Sequence record: NZ_CP048628.1
Reading direction: 5' to 3' (one strand)
From: a plasmid
DNA: 46,189 bases
The position numbers and the translations under genes were made by a program. This document shows, in pieces, positions 7,631 to 34,928 of this stretch (position 1 is its first letter; each line of letters begins with the position of its first letter). The notes under the pieces are model-generated. The model saw nothing but the letters and a program-made list of their open reading frames with translations, was not told where the DNA came from and searched no databases.

Positions 7631-8500
7631 TTATTCTACTTTTATTTTACTTATTTCTTCTATACTTAAATTAGTATATTTAGAAATAAGCTCTATATCT
7701 ACTTTATCTTTTAACATATTTTTTGCAGTTTGTATAGCTTGTTGATATGAACCTTGTTGCAATCCTTGTTGCAATCCTTCTTCTTTAAATGCACTTATAT
7801 ACGAATAATAATCTCTTATTGCTTTTTCTCTTTGTTCATAAGCTCTACGTTCTATTTTATCCTGTAAAAAAGTATCTTCAAATTCTACAGCTTCCTTAAT
7901 TGCTGGAGTTGTCATTGCTATTTCCTCCAATTCTTTTTTAGTGTATCTTCCTGAAAAATAAGCAAGCCATGCTTCAGATGTTCTTATTTTTCTCATATCC
8001 TTTAAAGTAAATTTTGGTAATTCTAAGAAATGTATTTCTATATGGTCTGTAAGTTTATTATGCGATTTCACATTTAAAAGGTTATAGATATTATGCCAGT
8101 CTTGCTCATCTTTTAAATAGTTAAATGCCAATAAATTTATAGTGATAGCTTTTTGTAATTTTGCATATTCAGCACCCTTTTCTAGTTGTTCTGAATACAT
8201 TTTCGACCAATAATATAGAGAACGCTGTGCCATTAAAGTAAATGGACAAACTTGAACTTCTATATCTACTTGTGTACCGTCGTTTAAGTCTGCTCTAATA
8301 TCTAATTTAGATAATTTACCGTCTAATGTTAATGGTTCATTATCTTTATCTAAAAAAGTTATATCTGTAAAATACTCTTGTTCATCTTTATTTAAAATGG
8401 CATTTAAGAAACTAAGTGTTAAATTTTTTCTATTTTTATCGCCTAATAATTTTTTAAAGTATAAGTCATTCAATCTATTGAAATTTTCCATGATATTCAC
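7631..8500 (-). CDS. Rpn/YhgA-like PD-(D/E)XK recombination-promoting nuclease (transposase_31 family)
   Basis: N-terminus ..FKKLLGDKNRKNLTLSFLNAILN.. and DIEVQVCPF (D-x-E-x-Q core), typical of the YhgA-like family. Confidence 0.65.
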   Translation of the reverse strand: MNIMENFNRLNDLYFKKLLGDKNRKNLTLSFLNAILNKDEQEYFTDITFLDKDNEPLTLDGKLSKLDIRADLNDGTQVDIEVQVCPFTLMAQRSLYYWSKMYSEQLEKGAEYAKLQKAITINLLAFNYLKDEQDWHNIYNLLNVKSHNKLTDHIEIHFLELPKFTLKDMRKIRTSEAWLAYFSGRYTKKELEEIAMTTPAIKEAVEFEDTFLQDKIERRAYEQREKAIRDYYSYISAFKEEGLQQGLQQGSYQQAIQTAKNMLKDKVDIELISKYTNLSIEEISKIKVE

Positions 8501-9296: not shown

Positions 9297-10389
9297 ATGG
9301 CACTTCCAAAGAAAATACAAAATCAAAGAAAAGAATTAGTTGACAAAGTAGTAAAAGACATTGAAAGTGGAAAACCATTCTTTTGGGATAGTGGACACTA
9401 TGGTAAACAGCCTAGAAATCTTTTAAAAGCAATAAAAGGTGAGGATAACTATTATAAAGGTATAAATGCCATGCAACTTACAATAGCAGCTAGAGTTAAT
9501 GGATTTAAAGATAGTAGATGGGCTACATTTAAGCAGGCAGAAATGGCAGGAGGACATGTTAAAAAGGGTGCTAAAGGTACACATATAGAATATTGGCAAT
9601 ATACACAAGATGTAATGGAATTAAATCCAAAAACAGGTAAAAAAGAACCTGTTTTTGAGATAAATCCAGATACTGGAGAAAGAAAGAAAAAACAAATTAT
9701 GTTAGAGCATCCAATCGTTAAATCTTACGTCGTTTTTAATGGCGACCAGATAGAAGGCATTGAAAAAGAACAGTTACCTGTTATTAAACAAGAAGATAAA
9801 AATAAAAACATGGAAAACATGATTAAAAACAGTGAAGCTAAAATCTTTTTTTGATGAACTAAGTCAAAATTATTATTCACCTAATAAAGATGAAATACAT
9901 GTTGTCCCTAAAGAAAAGTTTAAGACTTTAGATAATTTTTACGCAACGGTAGCCCACGAGATAGCACATTCTACAGGTGCTAAAGGACGTCTTAATCGTG
10001 AAACTTTAAAAAATAATGATGGTTTTGGAAATGAAATTTATGCAAAGGAAGAACTTCGAGCAGAACTTACATCAATGTTTCTTCAACAACGTTATAATGT
10101 TAATTTTGATGAAAAGCATTATGAAAATCATGCAGCCTATCTGCAAAATTGGGCACAGGTGATAAAAAACGACCCGAACGAGATTTACAGGGCGGCCGCT
10201 GACGCCGAAAAAGCAATGAGTTATATAGAAACACGTATGATAAAGAAAAACCTTACAAAAGAGAAATCTGTGCAAAAAGAAACGGCACTTGAAAATAAGC
10301 CAGTTCAAAAGAAAATTATCAAGCAGAAAATCACAATGAAATTTGATACTCAAAAATCTAAATCAAAGGAAAGAACGCTTACAAGATAA
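9297..10389 (+). pseudogene. ardC: ArdC-like antirestriction protein (ssDNA-binding N-domain plus HExxH metalloprotease domain), split by a +1 frameshift in a T7 tract at 9846..9852
   Basis: ORF 9297..9854 (N-domain) and ORF 9832..10389 (VAHEIAHSTG = HExxH) are in adjacent frames. Deleting one T of the seven restores a single frame (..AKIFFDELSQN..). The C-terminus is KKIIKQKITMKFDTQKSKSKERTLTR. Confidence 0.6.
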
Positions 10390-10392
10390 AGA

Positions 10393-10421
10393 AAAAGGCA
10401 GTGAATAATCACTGCCTTTTT
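10393..10421. terminator. bidirectional terminator between convergent genes (aaaaaggcagtg..cactgccttttt)
   Basis: 12-bp inverted repeat with A- and T-tracts on the two sides. Confidence 0.6.
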
Positions 10422-10423
10422 CT

Positions 10424-11014
10424 TTATCTGCTCATTTCCTGGTTATTATTATCTCTGTTAGGAAACTTCATAATAATTTTCTGTTTACGTGGTTTGGATT
10501 TTTGTATATTTTGCATAGCAATTTCTTTTTCCTGTTCTAGTTGTCGTATAAGCTCCTGTTTAATTTTCTTTACATTAGGAAATAATATATTGATACGATT
10601 ATTTAAGGAATAAATTTTGTTTACTTTTCTTAATAAATCTCTTTCTAATTTATTATCTATTATAACTTTTTTACCAGAAACAACATACTGTTCTTCTATG
10701 TATTTTTCTGTAATAGGACACATATTTTGTATGAGAAACACTCTTTTTTCTCCTAAAACTTTTCCAAAATGTAAGGTATCGCAAGATTTAAATTTTTTAA
10801 TTTTATGATTATAGATATCAGTATATTTTTTTACTTTAGAAGAAATAGGTATTAACCAGTAAATATTAGGATTAACTCTATCTTTTAAAGCATAAAAACA
10901 CGGTCTACCATGTTTTTCTCCGTTTATTGTTTCATGGTTTTGCATAAGACCTTTATCTGGAAAATCTTGAAAGTATTTATTTTTTATAAAATAAAAAGTT
11001 TTTTCTTGAAGCAT
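10424..11014 (-). CDS. ToxN/AbiQ-family endoribonuclease-like toxin with an extra C-terminal tail ..KQKIIMKFPNRDNNNQEMSR
   Basis: Likely start is ATG 11014 with RBS aagga (the track extends to 11050 using a GTG). FYFIKNKYFQDF and ..IYWLIPISSKVKK.. parallel ToxN FYTISSKYIEYLKEF and ..KYLAPLTSPKK.. as I recall them. It is preceded on its strand by a promoter, tandem repeats and a terminator hairpin. Confidence 0.5.
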   Translation of the reverse strand: MLQEKTFYFIKNKYFQDFPDKGLMQNHETINGEKHGRPCFYALKDRVNPNIYWLIPISSKVKKYTDIYNHKIKKFKSCDTLHFGKVLGEKRVFLIQNMCPITEKYIEEQYVVSGKKVIIDNKLERDLLRKVNKIYSLNNRINILFPNVKKIKQELIRQLEQEKEIAMQNIQKSKPRKQKIIMKFPNRDNNNQEMSR

Positions 11015-11036
11015 AATTTTTTCCTTTATACAAATA

Positions 11037-11064
11037 AAAGCCTTATCCACAGGATAAGGCTTTT
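11037..11064 (-). terminator. hairpin (aaagccttatcc..ggataaggcttt) between the repeat array and the ToxN-like start
   Basis: Perfect 12-bp inverted repeat; on the minus strand it is followed by uauuugu. Confidence 0.5.
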
Positions 11065-11070
11065 ATAACA

Positions 11071-11171
11071 ATGTGAACCCCGACGTTTTATATCCCGCAT
11101 ATCGGGTAGCGGTAGACATGTGAACCCCGACGTTTTATATCCCGCGTATCGGGTAGCGGTAGACATGTGAA
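11071..11171 (-). repeat. tandem 47-bp repeats, 2.15 copies (array A), transcribed toward the ToxN-like gene; ToxI/AntiQ-like antitoxin RNA candidate
   Basis: Units 11071..11117 and 11118..11164 differ at one base; a partial unit follows at 11165..11171. A promoter TTTACA-16-TATAGT lies on the minus strand at about 11178..11206. Confidence 0.5.
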
Positions 11172-11196
11172 TTACTATATCTAGAATACAACATTT

Positions 11197-11343
11197 GTAA
11201 AGAAAGGTAAAGCTTTTTCTATAAACTCCACTCATTATACATCTTCTTTTCAGCAAGTTTTGTTTTATTTGTGGTCTGTTCGTTTTCTTGCCATTTTGCC
11301 CTAGATTGTTGCATGTTATCATTAACAAGATTGTCGGCAATCT
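11197..11343 (-). repeat. about 147-bp duplicated copy of the relaxase 3' end (roughly 90% identical to 11583..11729), encoding a 51-aa remnant peptide
   Basis: Remnant ORF MNTSKIADNLVNDNMQQSRAKWQENEQTTNKTKLAEKKMYNEWSL, compared with the relaxase C-terminus ..KISKIADNLVNDNMQQFRAKWQENEQTTDKTKLAEKKMYNEWSL. Confidence 0.6.
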
Positions 11344-11410
11344 TTGAAGTATTCATTTTTAAGAAAATAGAATGTACAATCTTTCATAATATACCTTTAA
11401 ATAAACTAAA

Positions 11411-11434
11411 AGCTCTATCTAAAAAGATAGAGCT
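11411..11434 (-). terminator. hairpin agctctatc..gatagagct downstream (minus sense) of repeat array B
   Basis: 9-bp perfect inverted repeat with a 6-nt loop. Confidence 0.4.
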
Positions 11435-11444
11435 ATATTTGTAT

Positions 11445-11537
11445 CCTGACCATTTAATACCCCGTCTATCAGGAAAACGGAAATATGTCGTGCCCTGACC
11501 ATTTATACTCCGTCTATCAGGAAAACGGAAATATTTG
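11445..11537 (-). repeat. tandem 48-49-bp repeats, 1.9 copies (array B), immediately downstream of the relaxase stop; orphan ToxI-like array candidate
   Basis: cctgaccatttaataccccgtctatcaggaaaacggaaatatgtcgtgc (11445..11493), repeated with three changes at 11494 onward. Confidence 0.45.
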
Positions 11538-11585
11538 TTTGTTTATTGCTATAATATAACACTTATAAAGAAAAGTAAAGTGTTT

Positions 11586-13568
11586 TTATAAACTCCACTC
11601 ATTATACATCTTCTTTTCAGCAAGTTTTGTTTTATCTGTAGTCTGCTCGTTTTCTTGCCATTTTGCCCTAAATTGTTGCATATTGTCATTAACAAGATTG
11701 TCGGCAATTTTAGAAATTTTGTCTGTAACAGACTGGTTACGTTTTTTATAAGCTTCCTGTATAATTGGGTGTTCATTTAATTTCTTTTGTAATATATTAG
11801 AATGTTCTTTGTGTGCATATAAAAAAGCAAATTCATTGCTTTTTTGAATAGAAATTTTAATGTCATTTGTTTTTAAATAATATACTGGTACTTTTCCTTG
11901 TATAATATCATCACCTATTTTTACTGCTTTATTGTTATTTTTATCAATTATAAAGTAGGTATTATTGTTATTTATAATAAATGGTAAATCTTTTAATGAA
12001 GTTATTCCATTTATTTTGTTTTTATGCTCTAATTTTGGGGAAATTTTATCGCTAAAGATTATAGTGTCTTTATCTTCTTTAGATAGTTTATCTAAAGCTG
12101 TTTTATATTTTTGTACTTGAAGCATATTGTATTTGTAACGTGCATATAAAATCTTATTTTCAGATATAGCATCTTCGTTTTCTTTTTTTAGTTGATTTAA
12201 AATAGAAGTGTATTTTTCATGGTTAGTGGTTAATTCAATTTTATAGGCACTTATACGTTTACCTATTTTTGTGCGACTTGAACTAAGCTCTTGGCTTTTT
12301 CTGCTTAAAGAGCTTAGTTCTTTTATTTTATCTGCTTTTCCATATAAAGTAGGCAAAATACTATTTATTTGTTTTAATTCTTTGGAGATTTTATCATATT
12401 GTTTTATATCTTTACTGTAATTATCATTAAACATCTTGTCTTTAGCTAATAATTCAAGGCGTTGTTCATTTAAAATATTTTTTTTGGCAGCTTTAAAAAC
12501 AGCTAAGTTTTCAGCTGCTTTTTTTTCAAATTCATTTATTTTTGTGTCTAAATGTTTGCATATATCACCAGTAGTTATTATCATAGCTTCTTGTTTAATT
12601 TCTTCGGCTTCAGCTATGGCTTTTTTAGTTTGCTGTTCTTTTTTAAGACGTAAACGTTCTTGTTGTATTTGTTTAGCTACTTGTCTTATTACTACATCAT
12701 TAGCGAATAGTTGTATTTTTTGTTCTTGAATAGATAAATTTTCTTCTTTTTCTTGTTCTATAAATCCATCTGCGGCTTCATCAGCTTTTGCATCTGTTTC
12801 ATCAATTTTTTCCATGATATGTTCTAAGATTGCAGGATTTTTATAAGCATTTCCTAGATGTGGTGCAGGTGTACGATTTAAAAGTTCGGCTTCTTCTATT
12901 TTTCCTTGTTCTATAAGTTCTTGTCTTTGAGCTTTTAAACTCTTTTCTGATATAGAAACATTAAAGCCTTTTTCCTGGAATTTATCATTTACTATGTCGG
13001 CGAAAAGCTTTCTAATATCAATAGTAGCTGTTTTTGTTGAGAAATCTCTTGATGAACGGTAACCTTTTGTAGGCTCACCAAGTTTATTTTCAGCATAATT
13101 TTTAAAATACATATCAGGTTCAAGTGGTCTATTTTTTTCAATTATTTTTTCATTAAACATCAAATGACAATGTATATTTCTATGTTCCTTTGAAAAAGTG
13201 GCTGTTTTATCATGAATAGCATAGGAATATACATGATTATCTTTTATTCCAGTTTCTTTTAAGAATTTTTCAACACATTTAATATTTTCTTCAAGGGATA
13301 ACTCTTCTTGAAGGGCAAATTTAAATTCTCTATAAGCTCTACCATTAGGTTTATTTCTGTGTTCTTCCGCTTTTTGCCAGAAATCACGTGGATTATCAGC
13401 CCATTCAGGTAAATTCCCAAAAGAAGTTATTTTTAAATCTTCTTGTCTATTTTTCATATTGGTATAATCGCCTTCACGGGAGATATAGTCATAATGGATA
13501 GCTGTATTAAGTTTCGTACCATCTTTTCTTTTGCCATGTGGTGTGTTTTCAAAATAGTAATGTGCCAT
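11586..13568 (-). CDS. mobA: MobA/MobL-family (MOBQ-type) conjugative relaxase with a long coiled-coil C-terminal region
   Basis: N-terminal Tyr motif (..LNTAIHYDYISREGDY..) and histidine triad (HDKTATFSKEHRNIHCHLMF). Confidence 0.75.
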   Translation of the reverse strand: MAHYYFENTPHGKRKDGTKLNTAIHYDYISREGDYTNMKNRQEDLKITSFGNLPEWADNPRDFWQKAEEHRNKPNGRAYREFKFALQEELSLEENIKCVEKFLKETGIKDNHVYSYAIHDKTATFSKEHRNIHCHLMFNEKIIEKNRPLEPDMYFKNYAENKLGEPTKGYRSSRDFSTKTATIDIRKLFADIVNDKFQEKGFNVSISEKSLKAQRQELIEQGKIEEAELLNRTPAPHLGNAYKNPAILEHIMEKIDETDAKADEAADGFIEQEKEENLSIQEQKIQLFANDVVIRQVAKQIQQERLRLKKEQQTKKAIAEAEEIKQEAMIITTGDICKHLDTKINEFEKKAAENLAVFKAAKKNILNEQRLELLAKDKMFNDNYSKDIKQYDKISKELKQINSILPTLYGKADKIKELSSLSRKSQELSSSRTKIGKRISAYKIELTTNHEKYTSILNQLKKENEDAISENKILYARYKYNMLQVQKYKTALDKLSKEDKDTIIFSDKISPKLEHKNKINGITSLKDLPFIINNNNTYFIIDKNNNKAVKIGDDIIQGKVPVYYLKTNDIKISIQKSNEFAFLYAHKEHSNILQKKLNEHPIIQEAYKKRNQSVTDKISKIADNLVNDNMQQFRAKWQENEQTTDKTKLAEKKMYNEWSL

Positions 13569-13705: not shown

Positions 13706-13810
13706 TCTTGTTTTATTGCATATCTCTTATTTATATTATAAAAAATTATATCTATTATGTAAATATATATTTATCATAAAAACAATATAAATTATACTTC
13801 AAAACTCAAT

Positions 13811-13860
13811 AAGTATCACATCAATTTGAATAAATAAGTATCACATCAATTTGAATAAAT
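13811..13860. repeat. 2 x 25-bp perfect tandem repeat (aagtatcacatcaatttgaataaat) between mobA and the T4SS operon; operator candidate
   Basis: Read directly; lies about 85 bp upstream of the T4SS operon start. Confidence 0.6.
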
Positions 13861-32472: not shown

Positions 32473-32634
32473 ATGACTAATAATAATCTTAAAAAAAATG
32501 TTATTTCTGCAATAAAAAGTTGTGAGTTAGAAGGCTTTGTTTATACAAAAGAGGAAAAACAAGTTTTTAATAGAATTGCTTCAGGAGAAATAACAGTAGA
32601 TGAAGCAAGAAAGATTTTTAAAAGGATGTCATAA
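32473..32634 (+). CDS. VbhA/FicA-like small antitoxin candidate (53 aa) carrying the inhibitory motif SxxxEG
   Basis: MTNNNLKKNVISAIKSCELEGFVYTKEEKQVFNRIASGEITVDEARKIFKRMS; its stop overlaps the Fic start (taATGg); not in the ORF track because it is under 60 aa. Confidence 0.55.
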   Translation: MTNNNLKKNVISAIKSCELEGFVYTKEEKQVFNRIASGEITVDEARKIFKRMS

Positions 32635-33272
32635 TGGATGAGTATGTATTAAAGAATAAATTAGGTTTAAAAGATACACAAACCTTAAATAAATATGAAC
32701 GACGATTAAGTGCATTAAGAATTATTTCTCTTAAAGAAAAATCTTTTAAGAAATTTGATTTTTCAACCTTAAAAAGAATGCACAAGGAAATTTTTCAAGA
32801 CATTTATCAATGGGCTGGAACAACAAGAAATGTTAATATTTCCAAGGGAAAAACACTTTTTTGTCCAGTTGAAAATATAAATGTTTATGCTGATACAATT
32901 TTTAAAAAGTTAGAAAAAGAAAATTATTTAAAAGGGCTTTCTCAAGATAAGTTTTGCAAAAAAGCAGCTGAATTATTTGGAGATATAAATGCTTTACATC
33001 CTTTTAGAGAAGGTAATGGTCGTACTCAAAGAGAGTTTATTTATCATTTAGCTAAAAATTCTGGTTATGAATTGGACTTAAATCAATTAGATAAAACTAA
33101 ATATATGACGGCCTCTATTGAATCAATACTGACAAGTAATGAGAAAATGGAAAAGTTGATGAAATCTATAATAAAGCCGTTAGCTAAAGAAAAAGTCAAA
33201 ATCCGAAAACAGAAGATAGTGATGAAGTTTCCGGACAAGGATAAAAGTAATAATCGCAATATGGAACGCTGA
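32634..33272 (+). CDS. Fic-domain protein (AMPylation-type toxin) with C-terminal tail ..KQKIVMKFPDKDKSNNRNMER
   Basis: Canonical Fic motif HPFREGNGRTQREF (HPFx[DE]GNGRxxR). Confidence 0.8.
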   Translation: MDEYVLKNKLGLKDTQTLNKYERRLSALRIISLKEKSFKKFDFSTLKRMHKEIFQDIYQWAGTTRNVNISKGKTLFCPVENINVYADTIFKKLEKENYLKGLSQDKFCKKAAELFGDINALHPFREGNGRTQREFIYHLAKNSGYELDLNQLDKTKYMTASIESILTSNEKMEKLMKSIIKPLAKEKVKIRKQKIVMKFPDKDKSNNRNMER

Positions 33273-33347
33273 ATATATACAATATATAGTATATTTTCTT
33301 TCGACCATAAGATATAAAAACTATATTTAGTATATGGAGAATACAAA

Positions 33348-33539
33348 ATGATTAGTAATGTAGAACAAAAGCGGAGACGTGAAATGGTTGAATATAGTAT
33401 AGCTACCTGTGAATTAGAAGGATGTATTATAAGTGATGAATACAGAAGATTATCAGAAAAATATATTAAAGGTGAAATGACACTAGAAGATTTAAGTAAG
33501 GAAGTTCGGAAAAATCTTCCCTCAAATAAAAGCAGGTGA
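33348..33539 (+). CDS. second VbhA/FicA-like small protein (TCELEG motif)
   Basis: MISNVEQKRRREMVEYSIATCELEGCIISDEYRRLSEKYIKGEMTLEDL.. contains [ST]xxxE[GN]. Confidence 0.45.
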   Translation: MISNVEQKRRREMVEYSIATCELEGCIISDEYRRLSEKYIKGEMTLEDLSKEVRKNLPSNKSR

Positions 33540-33543
33540 TATA

Positions 33544-33954
33544 TTGAAATACTTATCTGGTATATTTGCATTGAATTTAATGTGTGATTTAGATACATTC
33601 GGCGACTGGCATACATCAGCGATTGATTGGAAGAATAAGATAAATTTTTGGAATAGTAGTCATAGTATATGGGGAGATTACGGCATAGAAAAAAACAGGA
33701 CTATTCCGGAAAACAAAGGAAAATTTAATGTTGCTAATCATATTAGAGCACTACTTGACTTAATCAGCATAGGAGATTTTCCTACAGCACAAGGAATGCG
33801 AGATAATTTTATCTGCAATGATAAATATACGCCAGAAATTTTTTCTAAAGTCAGTATGTTGAAGAACAATAAAAACTGGCCGGAAATAGATAAATTTATG
33901 GGTAAAGAATATATGATGCAATGGGTGAAATATAAAAAAGAGGTTAGTTTATGA
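33544..33954 (+). CDS. hypothetical protein upstream of the HipA-like kinase; HipS-like role possible
   Basis: 136 aa; overlaps the kinase gene start (ATGA). Confidence 0.35.
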   Translation: MKYLSGIFALNLMCDLDTFGDWHTSAIDWKNKINFWNSSHSIWGDYGIEKNRTIPENKGKFNVANHIRALLDLISIGDFPTAQGMRDNFICNDKYTPEIFSKVSMLKNNKNWPEIDKFMGKEYMMQWVKYKKEVSL

Positions 33955-34928
33955 TAATAGATTTTACTGATATAGCAAAAAATAATCCTAGTTTCAGAGC
34001 TTACGGAGGAGCTAACGGCATAAAAAAAGGAATACTATTTCATGGAAAACCGTATATGCTGAAGATAGAACATCGTGGAAAGAAGAAAAATAAAGATTAT
34101 AAGCATAGCGTATTATCAGAATATATTTCTTCAAAAATATATTCCATGTTGGATATTCCCACTCAAGAAGTTGTTCTCGGCAAGATTTATGATAATGGAA
34201 AAGAAAAATTATGCGTAGCTTGTAAAGATTTCAAAGAAAAAGGCGAATATCTGTATGAATTTTTAAATATAAAAAACTCCGTCCTTACGGAAAATTCCTC
34301 CAACGGCTCAGGTACGGAACTAGCGGAAATTTTAGAAGCCATAGATAAGCAGAACTTTTGTCCTGCAAGTGAAGTAAAAGAAAGATTTTGGGAAATGTTT
34401 GTCGTCGATACTTACTTAGGAAACTTTGACAGACATAACGGGAATTGGGGCTTTTTAGTTAATGAAAATACAGGGATTAAACACCTGGCGCCTGTTTTTG
34501 ATTGCGGGTCTTGCTTATATCCTGCACCTACGGATGAACAGCTACAAGTATTTTTAAACGACCCCAAAGAAATGGAAAAAAGAGTATATGTTTTTCCAAA
34601 CTCAATAATAGAAGAAAACGGTAAAAAAATAAATTACCATGAGTTCTTACAATCCACTTTAAATGAAGATTGTTTGAAAGCCGTAAGAAAAATGATACTC
34701 AAAATAGAAGCAAAATCTAATGATATAAAAGACTTTATTAATCACATTGAAGTATTATCTCCGGTTAGAAAGAAATTTTATACACAGATTTTAAGAATGC
34801 GTAGAGAACGGATATTGCAACCGGCATTAGAGCGTGCAAATAAATTGATGAAGAAGTCGTATAAGCAAAAAATAGTGATGAAGTTTCCGGACAAAGATAA
34901 AAGTAATAATCGCGTTATGAACAGATAA
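33951..34928 (+). CDS. HipA/HipT-like Ser/Thr kinase toxin with C-terminal tail ..KQKIVMKFPDKDKSNNRVMNR
   Basis: Catalytic region ERFWEMFVVDTYLGNFDRHNGNWGFLVNENTGIKHLAPVFDCGS parallels the HipA pattern ..vFN.lignTDDHlKNfS...g.w.LsPaYD.. Confidence 0.6.
   Translation: MIIDFTDIAKNNPSFRAYGGANGIKKGILFHGKPYMLKIEHRGKKKNKDYKHSVLSEYISSKIYSMLDIPTQEVVLGKIYDNGKEKLCVACKDFKEKGEYLYEFLNIKNSVLTENSSNGSGTELAEILEAIDKQNFCPASEVKERFWEMFVVDTYLGNFDRHNGNWGFLVNENTGIKHLAPVFDCGSCLYPAPTDEQLQVFLNDPKEMEKRVYVFPNSIIEENGKKINYHEFLQSTLNEDCLKAVRKMILKIEAKSNDIKDFINHIEVLSPVRKKFYTQILRMRRERILQPALERANKLMKKSYKQKIVMKFPDKDKSNNRVMNR

Follow-up and report, generated by a model that had tools for sequence, protein, structure and literature searches.

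An intact CptIN toxin-antitoxin cassette and the probable relic of a second allele on a conjugative plasmid of Megamonas funiformis

Sequence record NZ_CP048628.1 is a conjugative plasmid of 46,189 bp from Megamonas funiformis JCM 14723 (GC content 29.4%); its full length is called the window here. Downstream of the relaxase gene it carries, with high confidence, an intact type III toxin-antitoxin cassette of the CptIN family (allele A), preceded by the relic of a B-type CptIN cassette (11579..11219), which was probably left by recombination between a B-type and an A-type plasmid. In the 5' to 3' direction, and all on the minus strand, the relaxase gene is followed by a promoter, repeat array B, a hairpin, a stub of the toxin gene cptN_B, a copy of the relaxase tail, a second promoter, repeat array A, a terminator, a ribosome-binding site (RBS) and an open reading frame (ORF) of 196 aa. 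An earlier note, made from the sequence alone, had given an inventory of this locus that is essentially borne out, far beyond chance, and the same junction is present in seven independent metagenome contigs; the 16-codon toxin stub between the hairpin and the relaxase copy had gone unrecognized. In the following, L-numbers (for example, L094) denote sister or reference contigs or loci, and P-numbers (for example, P0155) the CptN-family toxins encoded in them.

The toxin gene, cptN_A (10424..11026, minus strand), has its RBS AAGGA at 11026..11022, 7 nt ahead of the ATG at 11014, and ends with the stop codon at 10424. Its product of 196 aa is deposited as WP_008540167.1 and annotated as a "hypothetical protein", and yet it matches the NCBIfam equivalog NF047359 (type III toxin-antitoxin system CptIN family toxin) with 184.8 bits at a cut-off of 90, with residues 6-155 aligned to positions 2-150 of the 150 positions of the profile. 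A phmmer search against all PDB chains matched a single protein, CptN of Eubacterium rectale (4RMO, E=1.5e-21), and a profile built from cptN_A and 17 relatives found the same structure with E=2.4e-40 and nothing else in the PDB, no ToxN, AbiQ or TenpN chain being matched at E <= 10. The AF2 model (pLDDT 84.6) has 4RMO as its best Foldseek match (TM 0.85, root mean square deviation 2.2 A, 32% identity), followed by MazF, YdcE and CcdB, a ranking that agrees with the Kid-like fold published for CptN (PMC4627078). R37, S58, S59 and Y110 do not vary in the family alignment and correspond to R30, S51, S52 and Tyr104 of the E. rectale toxin (CptN_Er), the active site of which comprises a Ser-Ser/Thr-Arg triad and Tyr104 (PMC4627078). 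Thus, on the combined strength of sequence and model, residues 6-155 are predicted to be a CptN endoribonuclease toxin core with the MazF/Kid fold, behind which follow a C-terminal helix and a disordered tail.

The earlier note had regarded the protein as ToxN/AbiQ-like and arrays A and B as unrelated modules. That the locus is such a ToxIN/AbiQ-family (PF13958) system is very improbable, although the general resemblance is real: promoter, tandem repeats, terminator and toxin are arranged in the same way, the repeat length of 47 nt falls within the range of 31-62 nt for toxIN (PMC3401426), and ToxN and CptN share a Kid/MazF-like fold and the catalytic logic. The succession of repeats, terminator and toxin does identify a type III toxin-antitoxin locus, and to this extent the proposed mechanism class stands; nevertheless, this architecture is common to all three type III families and, therefore, does not discriminate among them. 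The family assignment itself fails. Lack of a match of the 10424..11014 protein to PF13958 had been named in advance as an outcome that would speak against it, and the Pfam search returned nothing beyond noise, and no PF13958, even at E <= 10; PADLOC likewise reported nothing. The PDB profile search and the equivalog match instead point to CptN, the repeats match both the CptI model and the crystallized CptI (see below), and the two arrays are 64% identical, with compensatory changes in their stems. ToxN/AbiQ was rejected as the identity of the toxin on these grounds.

The array ahead of cptN_A consists of two 47-nt units, A1 (11166..11120) and A2 (11119..11073), flanked by partial units on both sides (11071..11171, minus strand; TRF, 47 nt x 2.1, 98% matches, score 195). 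It is preceded by a promoter-like site, TTTACA-16-TATAGT (11174..11201), which is the same in the sister plasmids L001, L094 and L005, and the -10 hexamer of which ends about 7 nt ahead of A1. Between the array, which ends 57 nt ahead of the toxin ATG, and the toxin gene lies an intrinsic terminator (11034..11066) with a perfect 15-bp stem, a 3-nt loop and a T-rich tail (dG -19.6, z -5.6, none of 200 shuffled sequences being as stable). Promoter, 47-nt repeats, terminator and RBS had all been reported in the earlier note and are confirmed. For cptIN loci, 1.9-3.4 tandem repeats of 40-48 nt have been described (PMC3401426, Table 2), and array A, with 47 nt x 2.1 on the same strand as the toxin gene and directly upstream of it, fits these ranges.

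To place the repeats, a reference set was used that comprised 80 CptN loci (L009-L088) from representative genomes, the closest of which have no more than 51% identity and which are unrelated to the Megamonas clade and mostly chromosomal. Repeats of about 46 nt were found directly upstream of the toxin in 77 of the 80, starting 90-195 nt ahead of the toxin start; two units were present in 74 loci, and a single unit was detected in three. A covariance-model scan of the reference loci (438 kb) yielded 156 units, all of them directly upstream of a toxin and none elsewhere within 3 kb, and no reference locus had a second array. An H-type pseudoknot, tested on 107 distinct reference units with stem S1 in columns 7-11/22-26 and stem S2 in columns 14-18/40-44, was 99.8% paired, with compensatory changes at 8 of 10 pairs, compared to 19-35% pairing in slid controls. 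When the model built from these units, the Megamonas clade being left out, was applied to the 46-kb window, exactly two matches with E < 0.01 were obtained, namely A1 and A2 (32.0 and 29.5 bits, E 1.2e-5 and 4.6e-5).

The comparison with the crystallized antitoxin of E. rectale (CptI_Er), the sequence of which was taken from the primer printed in PMC4627078, leads in the same direction. Unit A is identical to it at 35 of 45 positions, position for position, including the L2 stretch AUAUAAA with A29 and U30, the mutation of which abolishes antitoxicity in CptI_Er (PMC4627078). The unit can be segmented as AUGUCUA CCGC UA CCCGA UAU GCGG GAUAUAAAACG UCGGG GUUCAC, in which CCGC/GCGG form S1, CCCGA/UCGGG form S2, and AUAUAAA is the A-rich loop. 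Array A is, as far as its sequence can tell, a canonical CptI array and would encode the antitoxin RNA of the intact system. Folding of the repeats as pseudoknots had been suggested as a check in the earlier note, and the H-type layout was found in both arrays, in keeping with the family-wide covariation. Single-sequence minimum free energy folding of the units was uninformative (z +0.4 to +0.5), because the fold is a pseudoknot, which that tool cannot predict, and an Rfam search with a permissive threshold returned no match for the repeats and mere noise for the terminator hairpins.

It should be noted that repeat 1 and repeat 2 are not interchangeable across the family. At S1 pair 9-24, 48 of the 74 two-repeat reference loci have U-A in repeat 1 and C-G in repeat 2, the reverse order occurs in one locus, and the L2 loop of repeat 2 is often longer by 1 nt. 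This pattern suggests, at the level of sequence, that each CptIN locus contains two conserved and distinct CptI paralogues.

The earlier note had also raised the possibility that the repeats are iterons, and they do adjoin a relaxase gene on a plasmid. However, that they are iterons, oriT/oriV elements or other protein-binding DNA repeats instead of RNA genes is extremely improbable: the same repeat family lies directly upstream of CptN genes in the 77 of 80 unrelated, mostly chromosomal loci, which come from many phyla, and nowhere else in these loci; the base-pair covariation supports an RNA pseudoknot; and each of the two arrays is bracketed by a promoter and a terminator.

Array B (11435..11534, minus strand) was found by repeat search and direct reading and was not listed by TRF. 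It consists of unit B1 (11534..11487) and unit B2 (11486..11439), followed by 4 nt of a third unit, so that the two units described earlier stand, while their length is 48 nt instead of 49. Ahead of it is a promoter-like site, TTTACT-17-TATTAT (11579..11551), both hexamers of which are the same as before the intact cptIN_B loci L006 and L103-L107, and behind it follows an intrinsic-terminator hairpin with a 10-bp stem, a 4-nt loop and a T-run (11411..11434; dG -14.3 kcal/mol, z -3.9), which is likewise the same in intact B loci.

The view that arrays A and B are unrelated in sequence proved to be wrong. Units A and B are identical at 30 of 47 positions (64% over 33 nt in the repeat search), and unit B, segmented as AUAUUU CCGU UUU CCUGA UAG ACGG GGUAUUAAAUGG UCAGG AUACAA, shares with unit A the order of 5' tail, S1, short loop, S2, 3 nt, S1', A-rich loop, S2' and 3' tail. 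Its stems are CCGU/ACGG and CCUGA/UCAGG, and the stem differences between A and B are compensatory, with a change from C-G to U-A in each stem. Pairing of S2 is 100% across the 16 distinct units from the Megamonas clade, with double changes at 4 of 5 pairs; S1 reaches 81% pairing in the alignment of this clade, because MAFFT and a second covariance model left array B ungapped and thereby shifted its S1 by one column, which is resolved by explicit segmentation. Identity of unit B to CptI_Er amounts to 28-29 of 45 positions. Most importantly, array B agrees at 94 of 97 positions with arrays that stand directly ahead of intact CptN-family genes (L006, L007, L103-L107): unit B2 is identical to the units of these loci, and B1 has three differences, none of them in the stems. 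By sequence, therefore, the two arrays are diverged homologues. A covariance-model search of the whole plasmid found arrays A and B only, and cptN_A is the sole CptN gene on the plasmid.

What follows array B reveals where it came from. Downstream of the hairpin lies a truncated toxin gene (11340..11398, minus strand) with the RBS AAAGG at 11398..11394, an ATG at 11387 and 16 codons, MKDCTFYFLKNEYFKD, which correspond to an N-terminus identical to that of P0006, P0155 and P0156. In L006, L007 and L103-L107, the same promoter hexamers, array, hairpin and RBS precede a CptN gene that is intact (NF047359, about 182 bits) and the product of which begins MKDCTFYFLKNEYFKDFP (MKDCTFYFLKNEYFKDFPSKG), and the stub differs from the DNA of these intact B loci at 3 of 48 nt. 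On this sequence evidence, the stub is the 5' end of a second CptN gene, and array B belongs to the relic of a B-type cptIN cassette that was cut after codon 16. The earlier description of the array as an orphan is thus upheld in the sense that no complete toxin gene of its own remains. The frame of the stub runs for 5 further codons into the adjoining relaxase copy and stops at 11322; the 45-aa ORF at 11356..11219 is an artefact of an in-frame ATG inside the toxin remnant.

The cut is a recombination junction with a shared ATT (11339..11341) in codon 16/17 of cptN_B, defined by alignment to the intact B locus L006. Here, cptN_B (..TTCAAAGATT|TTCC; ..AAAGATT|TTCC..) meets the relaxase gene (..TTCTAAAATT|GCCGAC; ..AAAATT|GCCGAC..), the ATT lying within a stretch that matches at 8 of 10 positions. 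The sequence beyond it (11219..11341, minus strand) is a non-functional copy of the last 40 codons and the stop codon of the relaxase gene (IADNLVNDNMQQSRAKWQ...YNEWSL*). Such a copy had been noticed before, and it is indeed present (138 nt at 92% identity in the repeat search, 11216-11353 against 11583-11720); the length of 147 bp and the 51-aa ORF ascribed to it were not recovered, the copy extending over 123-138 nt and the ATG-started ORF being the one of 45 aa. The complete relaxase gene itself (13568..11586, minus strand) encodes a MobA/MobL-family protein of 660 aa (PF03389, E=1.9e-24), and an identical protein in the databases has the name MobA/MobL; exact counterparts of this relaxase, of the toxin and of VirB9 and VirB10 are encoded on a Megamonas funiformis plasmid (QIB61268-72). 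The stop codon of the relaxase gene lies shortly before the cassette slot.

The junction is identical in L092, L093, L095, L097, L099, L100 and L101. Six contigs with the double arrangement differ from the window at 0-1 of 706 positions, and L099 has this junction and right half as well, but differs in the relaxase 3' end and in its variant of B1. From this it follows that the junction had a single origin, that it is not an artefact of assembly, and that it persisted through one or more later exchanges upstream of it. In addition, the same A toxin is encoded both in plasmids with a single cassette (L094, L096, L098) and in the double arrangement of these seven contigs.

The earlier note had ascribed the locus to a duplication of the relaxase 3' end. 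If a 367-bp segment had simply been duplicated in tandem on a single plasmid and the copies had then diverged, the colinearity of the two units over their full length at a spacing of 367 nt would be accounted for. Identity is unequal along them, however: it falls from 92% over the relaxase tail to about 80% over the promoter and about 64% over the array, and the terminators are unrelated in sequence. Each half is nearly identical to an allele that occurs by itself in sister plasmids, the A half in L094 and L001 and the B half in L006 and L103. Duplication and subsequent drift are thereby excluded, and such an origin is given next to no weight. Instead, two allelic cassettes, each composed of relaxase tail, cptI and cptN, are joined in tandem, B first and then A, and intact B cassettes exist elsewhere. 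In the simplest history, a B-type and an A-type sister plasmid would have recombined once, by homology within the relaxase gene and illegitimately at the ATT: the relaxase tail of 40 codons would have arrived together with the A cassette, and the event would have destroyed toxin B and kept antitoxin B. The recombinant would have been viable because the toxin was removed while its antitoxin was retained, and array B would be a by-product of the cassette replacement.

The cassette slot is variable among related plasmids. Sister plasmids from many gut metagenomes have the order relaxase, about 200 nt, cptN and convergent ardC. L094, which has an A cassette, and L103, which has a B cassette, are 98-100% identical through the relaxase and ardC genes and 50-80% identical across the roughly 850 nt from the relaxase stop to the toxin stop; by this comparison, a cassette of about 850 nt is swapped in a near-isogenic plasmid backbone, and the module swapping suspected in the earlier note is real. 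The toxin occurs in at least five alleles (A, B, C=P0002, D=P0004 and E=P0007), the others having 55-64% identity to A and each being accompanied by its own co-varying array. Allele B is by far the commonest, with its toxin P0155 in 2297 blocks of the collection versus 79 for the A toxin. A megablast search of PLSDB with a 3.3-kb query gave no match, tblastn found only relatives with at most 47% identity (Clostridium and others), and tblastn of the relaxase found only distant MobA matches.

Two further contigs illustrate the variety of cptIN loci. In L102 (GCA_046969565.1), an ISL3-family transposase gene (L102:3431-5001) is inserted exactly between the cptI_B terminator and the RBS of cptN_B, and thus uncouples an intact antitoxin array from an intact toxin gene. 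A D-type allele (P0004; L089:137-1449) does not adjoin a relaxase gene and is located directly downstream of a type II pair, PhdYeFM/ParE-YoeB; between its two repeats, both stems show compensatory changes.

The mode of action of cassette A (11201..10424, minus strand), an intact CptIN cassette by the evidence above, can be proposed by analogy with the solved E. rectale CptIN complex. A constitutive promoter would transcribe the two 47-nt cptI_A repeats, most transcripts would end at the strong hairpin, and read-through would lead to a small amount of CptN_A. Cleavage by the toxin at the motif conserved between units, CA(C/A)|AU(G/A)U in this locus, would release single units from the repeat transcript, and each 47-nt unit would fold as an H-type pseudoknot and hold the toxin in an inactive 2:2 ring. 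The toxin, being stable, would become free once the plasmid is lost or transcription is shut off, which would result in plasmid addiction and possibly in the abortion of phage infection. For characterized systems, it has been shown that CptN processes its own repeats, that a single repeat is fully antitoxic and that cptIN stabilizes plasmids (PMC4627078). Growth inhibition, rescue by the cognate repeat and transcript cleavage have been demonstrated for three other CptIN systems, and CptI was selective for the cognate toxin among pairs with 35-44% toxin identity (PMC4627078). By this analogy, transcription and processing of cptI_A, toxicity of CptN_A and a role in addiction are all to be expected, and a role in phage defence is possible.

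Several observations weigh against the interpretation of the locus as an intact CptIN cassette behind a CptIN relic, or against parts of it. Asp81 and Ser85 of CptN_Er, which specify the scissile adenine, align with G88 and R91 in CptN_A, and the linker between the units of array A is UUCAC|AUG, whereas the usual form is UUCAA|AUG, so that the cut site may differ. Furthermore, CptN_A has a C-terminal extension of about 40 aa, made up of the helix and the disordered tail, that is absent from canonical CptN. Array B scores only 8 bits with the canonical CptI model (E about 4, below significance), and its assignment as a CptI array is based on its position ahead of the intact CptN_B genes and on the shared fold layout. 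With respect to phage defence, no CptIN system has been shown to stop any phage (PMC3401426, PMC4627078). Finally, the divergence of array B from intact loci (3 of 97 positions) is similar to that of the dead toxin stub (3 of 48) and of the relaxase tail, and the only two single-nucleotide polymorphisms (SNPs) among the six near-identical contigs are both located in repeat 1 of array B.

These last numbers bear on the question of whether array B still acts. It may be an inert scar, silent or transcribed without consequence and awaiting deletion, which is a serious candidate even if its chances are put at somewhat below even. The recombinant is of single recent origin, its array has accumulated substitutions at a density similar to that of the dead toxin remnant, both SNPs among the clones fall into the array, and cptIN loci with full repeats and truncated toxins (45-101 aa) have already been listed, decaying loci being common (PMC3401426). 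The promoter, the stems of the array and the terminator are all intact, however; silence would be unlikely for a sigma-70-like promoter that is the same as at functional loci, and the RNA of array B, if made, is by its sequence the cognate inhibitor of a toxin in circulation within this species. Array B is, judged from its promoter and terminator, probably still transcribed, and in that case it could inhibit CptN_B, since unit B2 has the cognate sequence and one repeat suffices in E. rectale. The chances that it is still expressed and able to neutralize the CptN_B of co-resident or incoming B-type plasmids are judged to be even. Inhibition of CptN_A by array B is unlikely, because strict selectivity has been found between CptIN pairs, although those pairs were more divergent.

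It is a further step to assume that array B has been kept because it is useful, as an orphan antitoxin that confers immunity to the CptN_B of the commoner B-type plasmids and thus serves as an anti-addiction or plasmid-competition device. An A-type plasmid so equipped could enter a cell, coexist with B-type plasmids or displace them without post-segregational killing, in a manner like the pseudo-ToxI of a phage. Besides the intact promoter hexamers and terminator and the intact stems of both units, with B2 equal to the cognate units, the large excess of P0155 over the A toxin would favour such a role, as would the survival of the relic through the later upstream recombination seen in L099, the location of all six variable sites of array B outside the stems, and the high selectivity of CptI, owing to which a second toxin would need a separate array; moreover, roles in anti-addiction and plasmid competition are established for type II systems (PMC12548467). 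On the other hand, in a lineage as young as this (six contigs with 0-1 SNP per 706 nt), neutral persistence of a 367-nt scar is the null expectation; divergence in the array is no lower than in the adjacent dead sequence, and the occurrence of a second array in none of the 80 other CptIN loci indicates that this is not a recurrent strategy. Retention for usefulness is considered unlikely, albeit worth keeping in view, and the substitution densities are too small in number to discriminate for or against selection on the relic array.

A comparison with known systems places the locus closest to CptIN of E. rectale (4RMO; Blower et al. 2012, Rao et al. 2015), with which it shares the toxin family, the plan of promoter, about two repeats of 45-47 nt, terminator and toxin, the 35/45 identical unit with its AUAUAAA loop, and the same H-type pseudoknot layout. 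It differs in its residence on a conjugative plasmid in a Negativicute, in the unit length (47 versus 45 nt), in the UUCAC|AUG linker, in the lack of conservation at the equivalents of Asp81 and Ser85, in the C-terminal extension and in the preceding toxin-less array. The survey of 2012 contained 33 cptIN loci, all of them chromosomal (PMC3401426). ToxIN of Pectobacterium atrosepticum and AbiQ of Lactococcus resemble the locus in that a toxin RNase is inhibited by its own processed tandem-repeat pseudoknot RNA, in that a terminator controls the ratio of toxin to antitoxin, and in that they are plasmid-borne, but they have no detectable sequence relationship to CptN_A, and ToxI, with units of 36 nt, forms a heterohexamer, whereas CptIN forms a heterotetramer (PMC4627078). 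Truncated-toxin cptIN loci (Bryantella formatexigens, Lachnospiraceae 9_1_43BFAA and others; PMC3401426) also consist of a complete array and terminator followed by a short 5' piece of CptN. In the present case, in contrast, the truncation point, the relaxase-tail partner and the donor alleles can all be identified, and the relic stands in tandem with an intact cassette of another specificity allele.

Mobile elements with antitoxin repeats and no toxin have a further parallel among phages. Phage PhiTE, in work attributed to Blower et al. in PLoS Genet in 2012, reportedly escapes abortive infection by means of pseudo-ToxI or captured ToxI repeats, which is said to have been shown experimentally. 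The likeness is that a mobile element carries, without the toxin, type III antitoxin repeats that could neutralize a toxin encoded elsewhere; the difference is that the element in question here is a plasmid, that the activity is predicted, and that the array would be a by-product of cassette replacement.

An antitoxin that matches the toxin of a rival plasmid is able to cancel its post-segregational killing (Saavedra De Bast 2008; Cooper & Heinemann 2000; reviewed in PMC12548467). The known anti-addiction modules are of type II, with protein antitoxins, and mostly chromosomal, whereas array B is of type III and on a plasmid; a full-text literature search found no type III plasmid example of anti-addiction.

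The system itself is, accordingly, not a new kind of biology. Relative to the available literature, the following is new. CptIN resides here on a conjugative plasmid, with the reservation that some plasmid-encoded proteins now bear the CptIN label at NCBI; its slot is polymorphic, and toxin and RNA alleles co-vary there within a single plasmid backbone; and the origin of a toxin-less array can be reconstructed base by base, full arrays with truncated toxins having been known since 2012. A "hypothetical protein" and repeats without an Rfam family on the type-strain plasmid of a common human gut bacterium become a well-defined CptIN addiction module, and CptIN, first described as purely chromosomal, is found to fill a hot-swappable slot between relaxase and ardC in a very widespread Megamonas plasmid family. 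The intact and relic configurations around one toxin allele, together with the abundant B plasmids, offer a natural test bed for the divergence of cognate RNA-protein specificity, for which 58% identity of the toxins and 64% identity of the RNAs are available. The same test bed could reveal whether an RNA antitoxin that was left behind confers immunity across plasmids.

The C-terminal extension of CptN_A ends in a sequence that the earlier note had described as shared, and this holds true: four unrelated proteins of the window end in KQKI(I/V/T)MKF(P/D)x(K/R)D...R*, with the motif 21-22 residues before the terminal R. They are CptN_A (10424..10489, minus strand), the C-terminal half of ArdC (10321..10389, plus strand), a Fic/DOC protein (33207..33272, gene 32634..33272, plus strand) and a HipA_C-like kinase (34863..34928, gene 33951..34928, plus strand). 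In the CptN_A model, the last 20 or so residues, motif included, are of low confidence (block means 48 and 41, residues 185-196 below pLDDT 50). None of the 80 canonical CptIN loci has the tail, and a frameshift has removed it from the commonest B allele, P0155. Apart from the Fic/HipA pair, the DNA identity between the tails is low, so that the conservation is at the protein level. ArdC has been cited as a protein that is transferred with the DNA during conjugation (PMC5512222), which makes a type IV secretion signal a reasonable idea; from its sequence, the tail could be a translocation signal for a type IV secretion system or a degron.

Taken further, this idea would let the type III system act between cells. 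The tails of CptN_A, ArdC, Fic/DOC and the HipA-like protein would be translocation signals for the VirB-type type IV secretion system of the plasmid, and the toxins would be injected into recipients along with the DNA. Recipients that destroy the plasmid or fail to establish it would be poisoned, and those that keep it would be rescued by newly transcribed cptI, while the toxin-less cptI_B would be a shield against CptN_B resident in, or injected by, the dominant B-type rival plasmids. This scenario is regarded as improbable.

Some features of the surroundings should be mentioned. A perfect 21-bp inverted repeat (10384..10429) lies between the convergent cptN_A and ardC genes, overlaps the stop codons of both and is likely to be a bidirectional terminator. 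The ardC gene itself (ArdC-N + MPTase-PolyVal, 9297..10389, plus strand) is split into two overlapping ORFs of 185 aa in the window and in all relic-bearing contigs, whereas it is one gene of 364 aa in the single-cassette sister plasmids; the frameshift behind the split is specific to this lineage and accompanies the double-array junction. Tandem repeats shortly ahead of the relaxase start (13734..13860; 19 nt x 2.9 and 25 nt x 2.1, with 100% identity in the second) are a candidate, by sequence, for the oriT/nic region. The Fic/DOC and HipA-like genes (32634..34928, plus strand), which are separated by a 136-aa ORF without a Pfam match (33544..33954), may represent further toxin-antitoxin or effector modules. 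About 2 kb away from the cassette, a gene for a PD-(D/E)XK_2 (Rpn-like) nuclease/transposase (7631..8500, minus strand) contains a CCTTGTTGCAAT tandem repeat.

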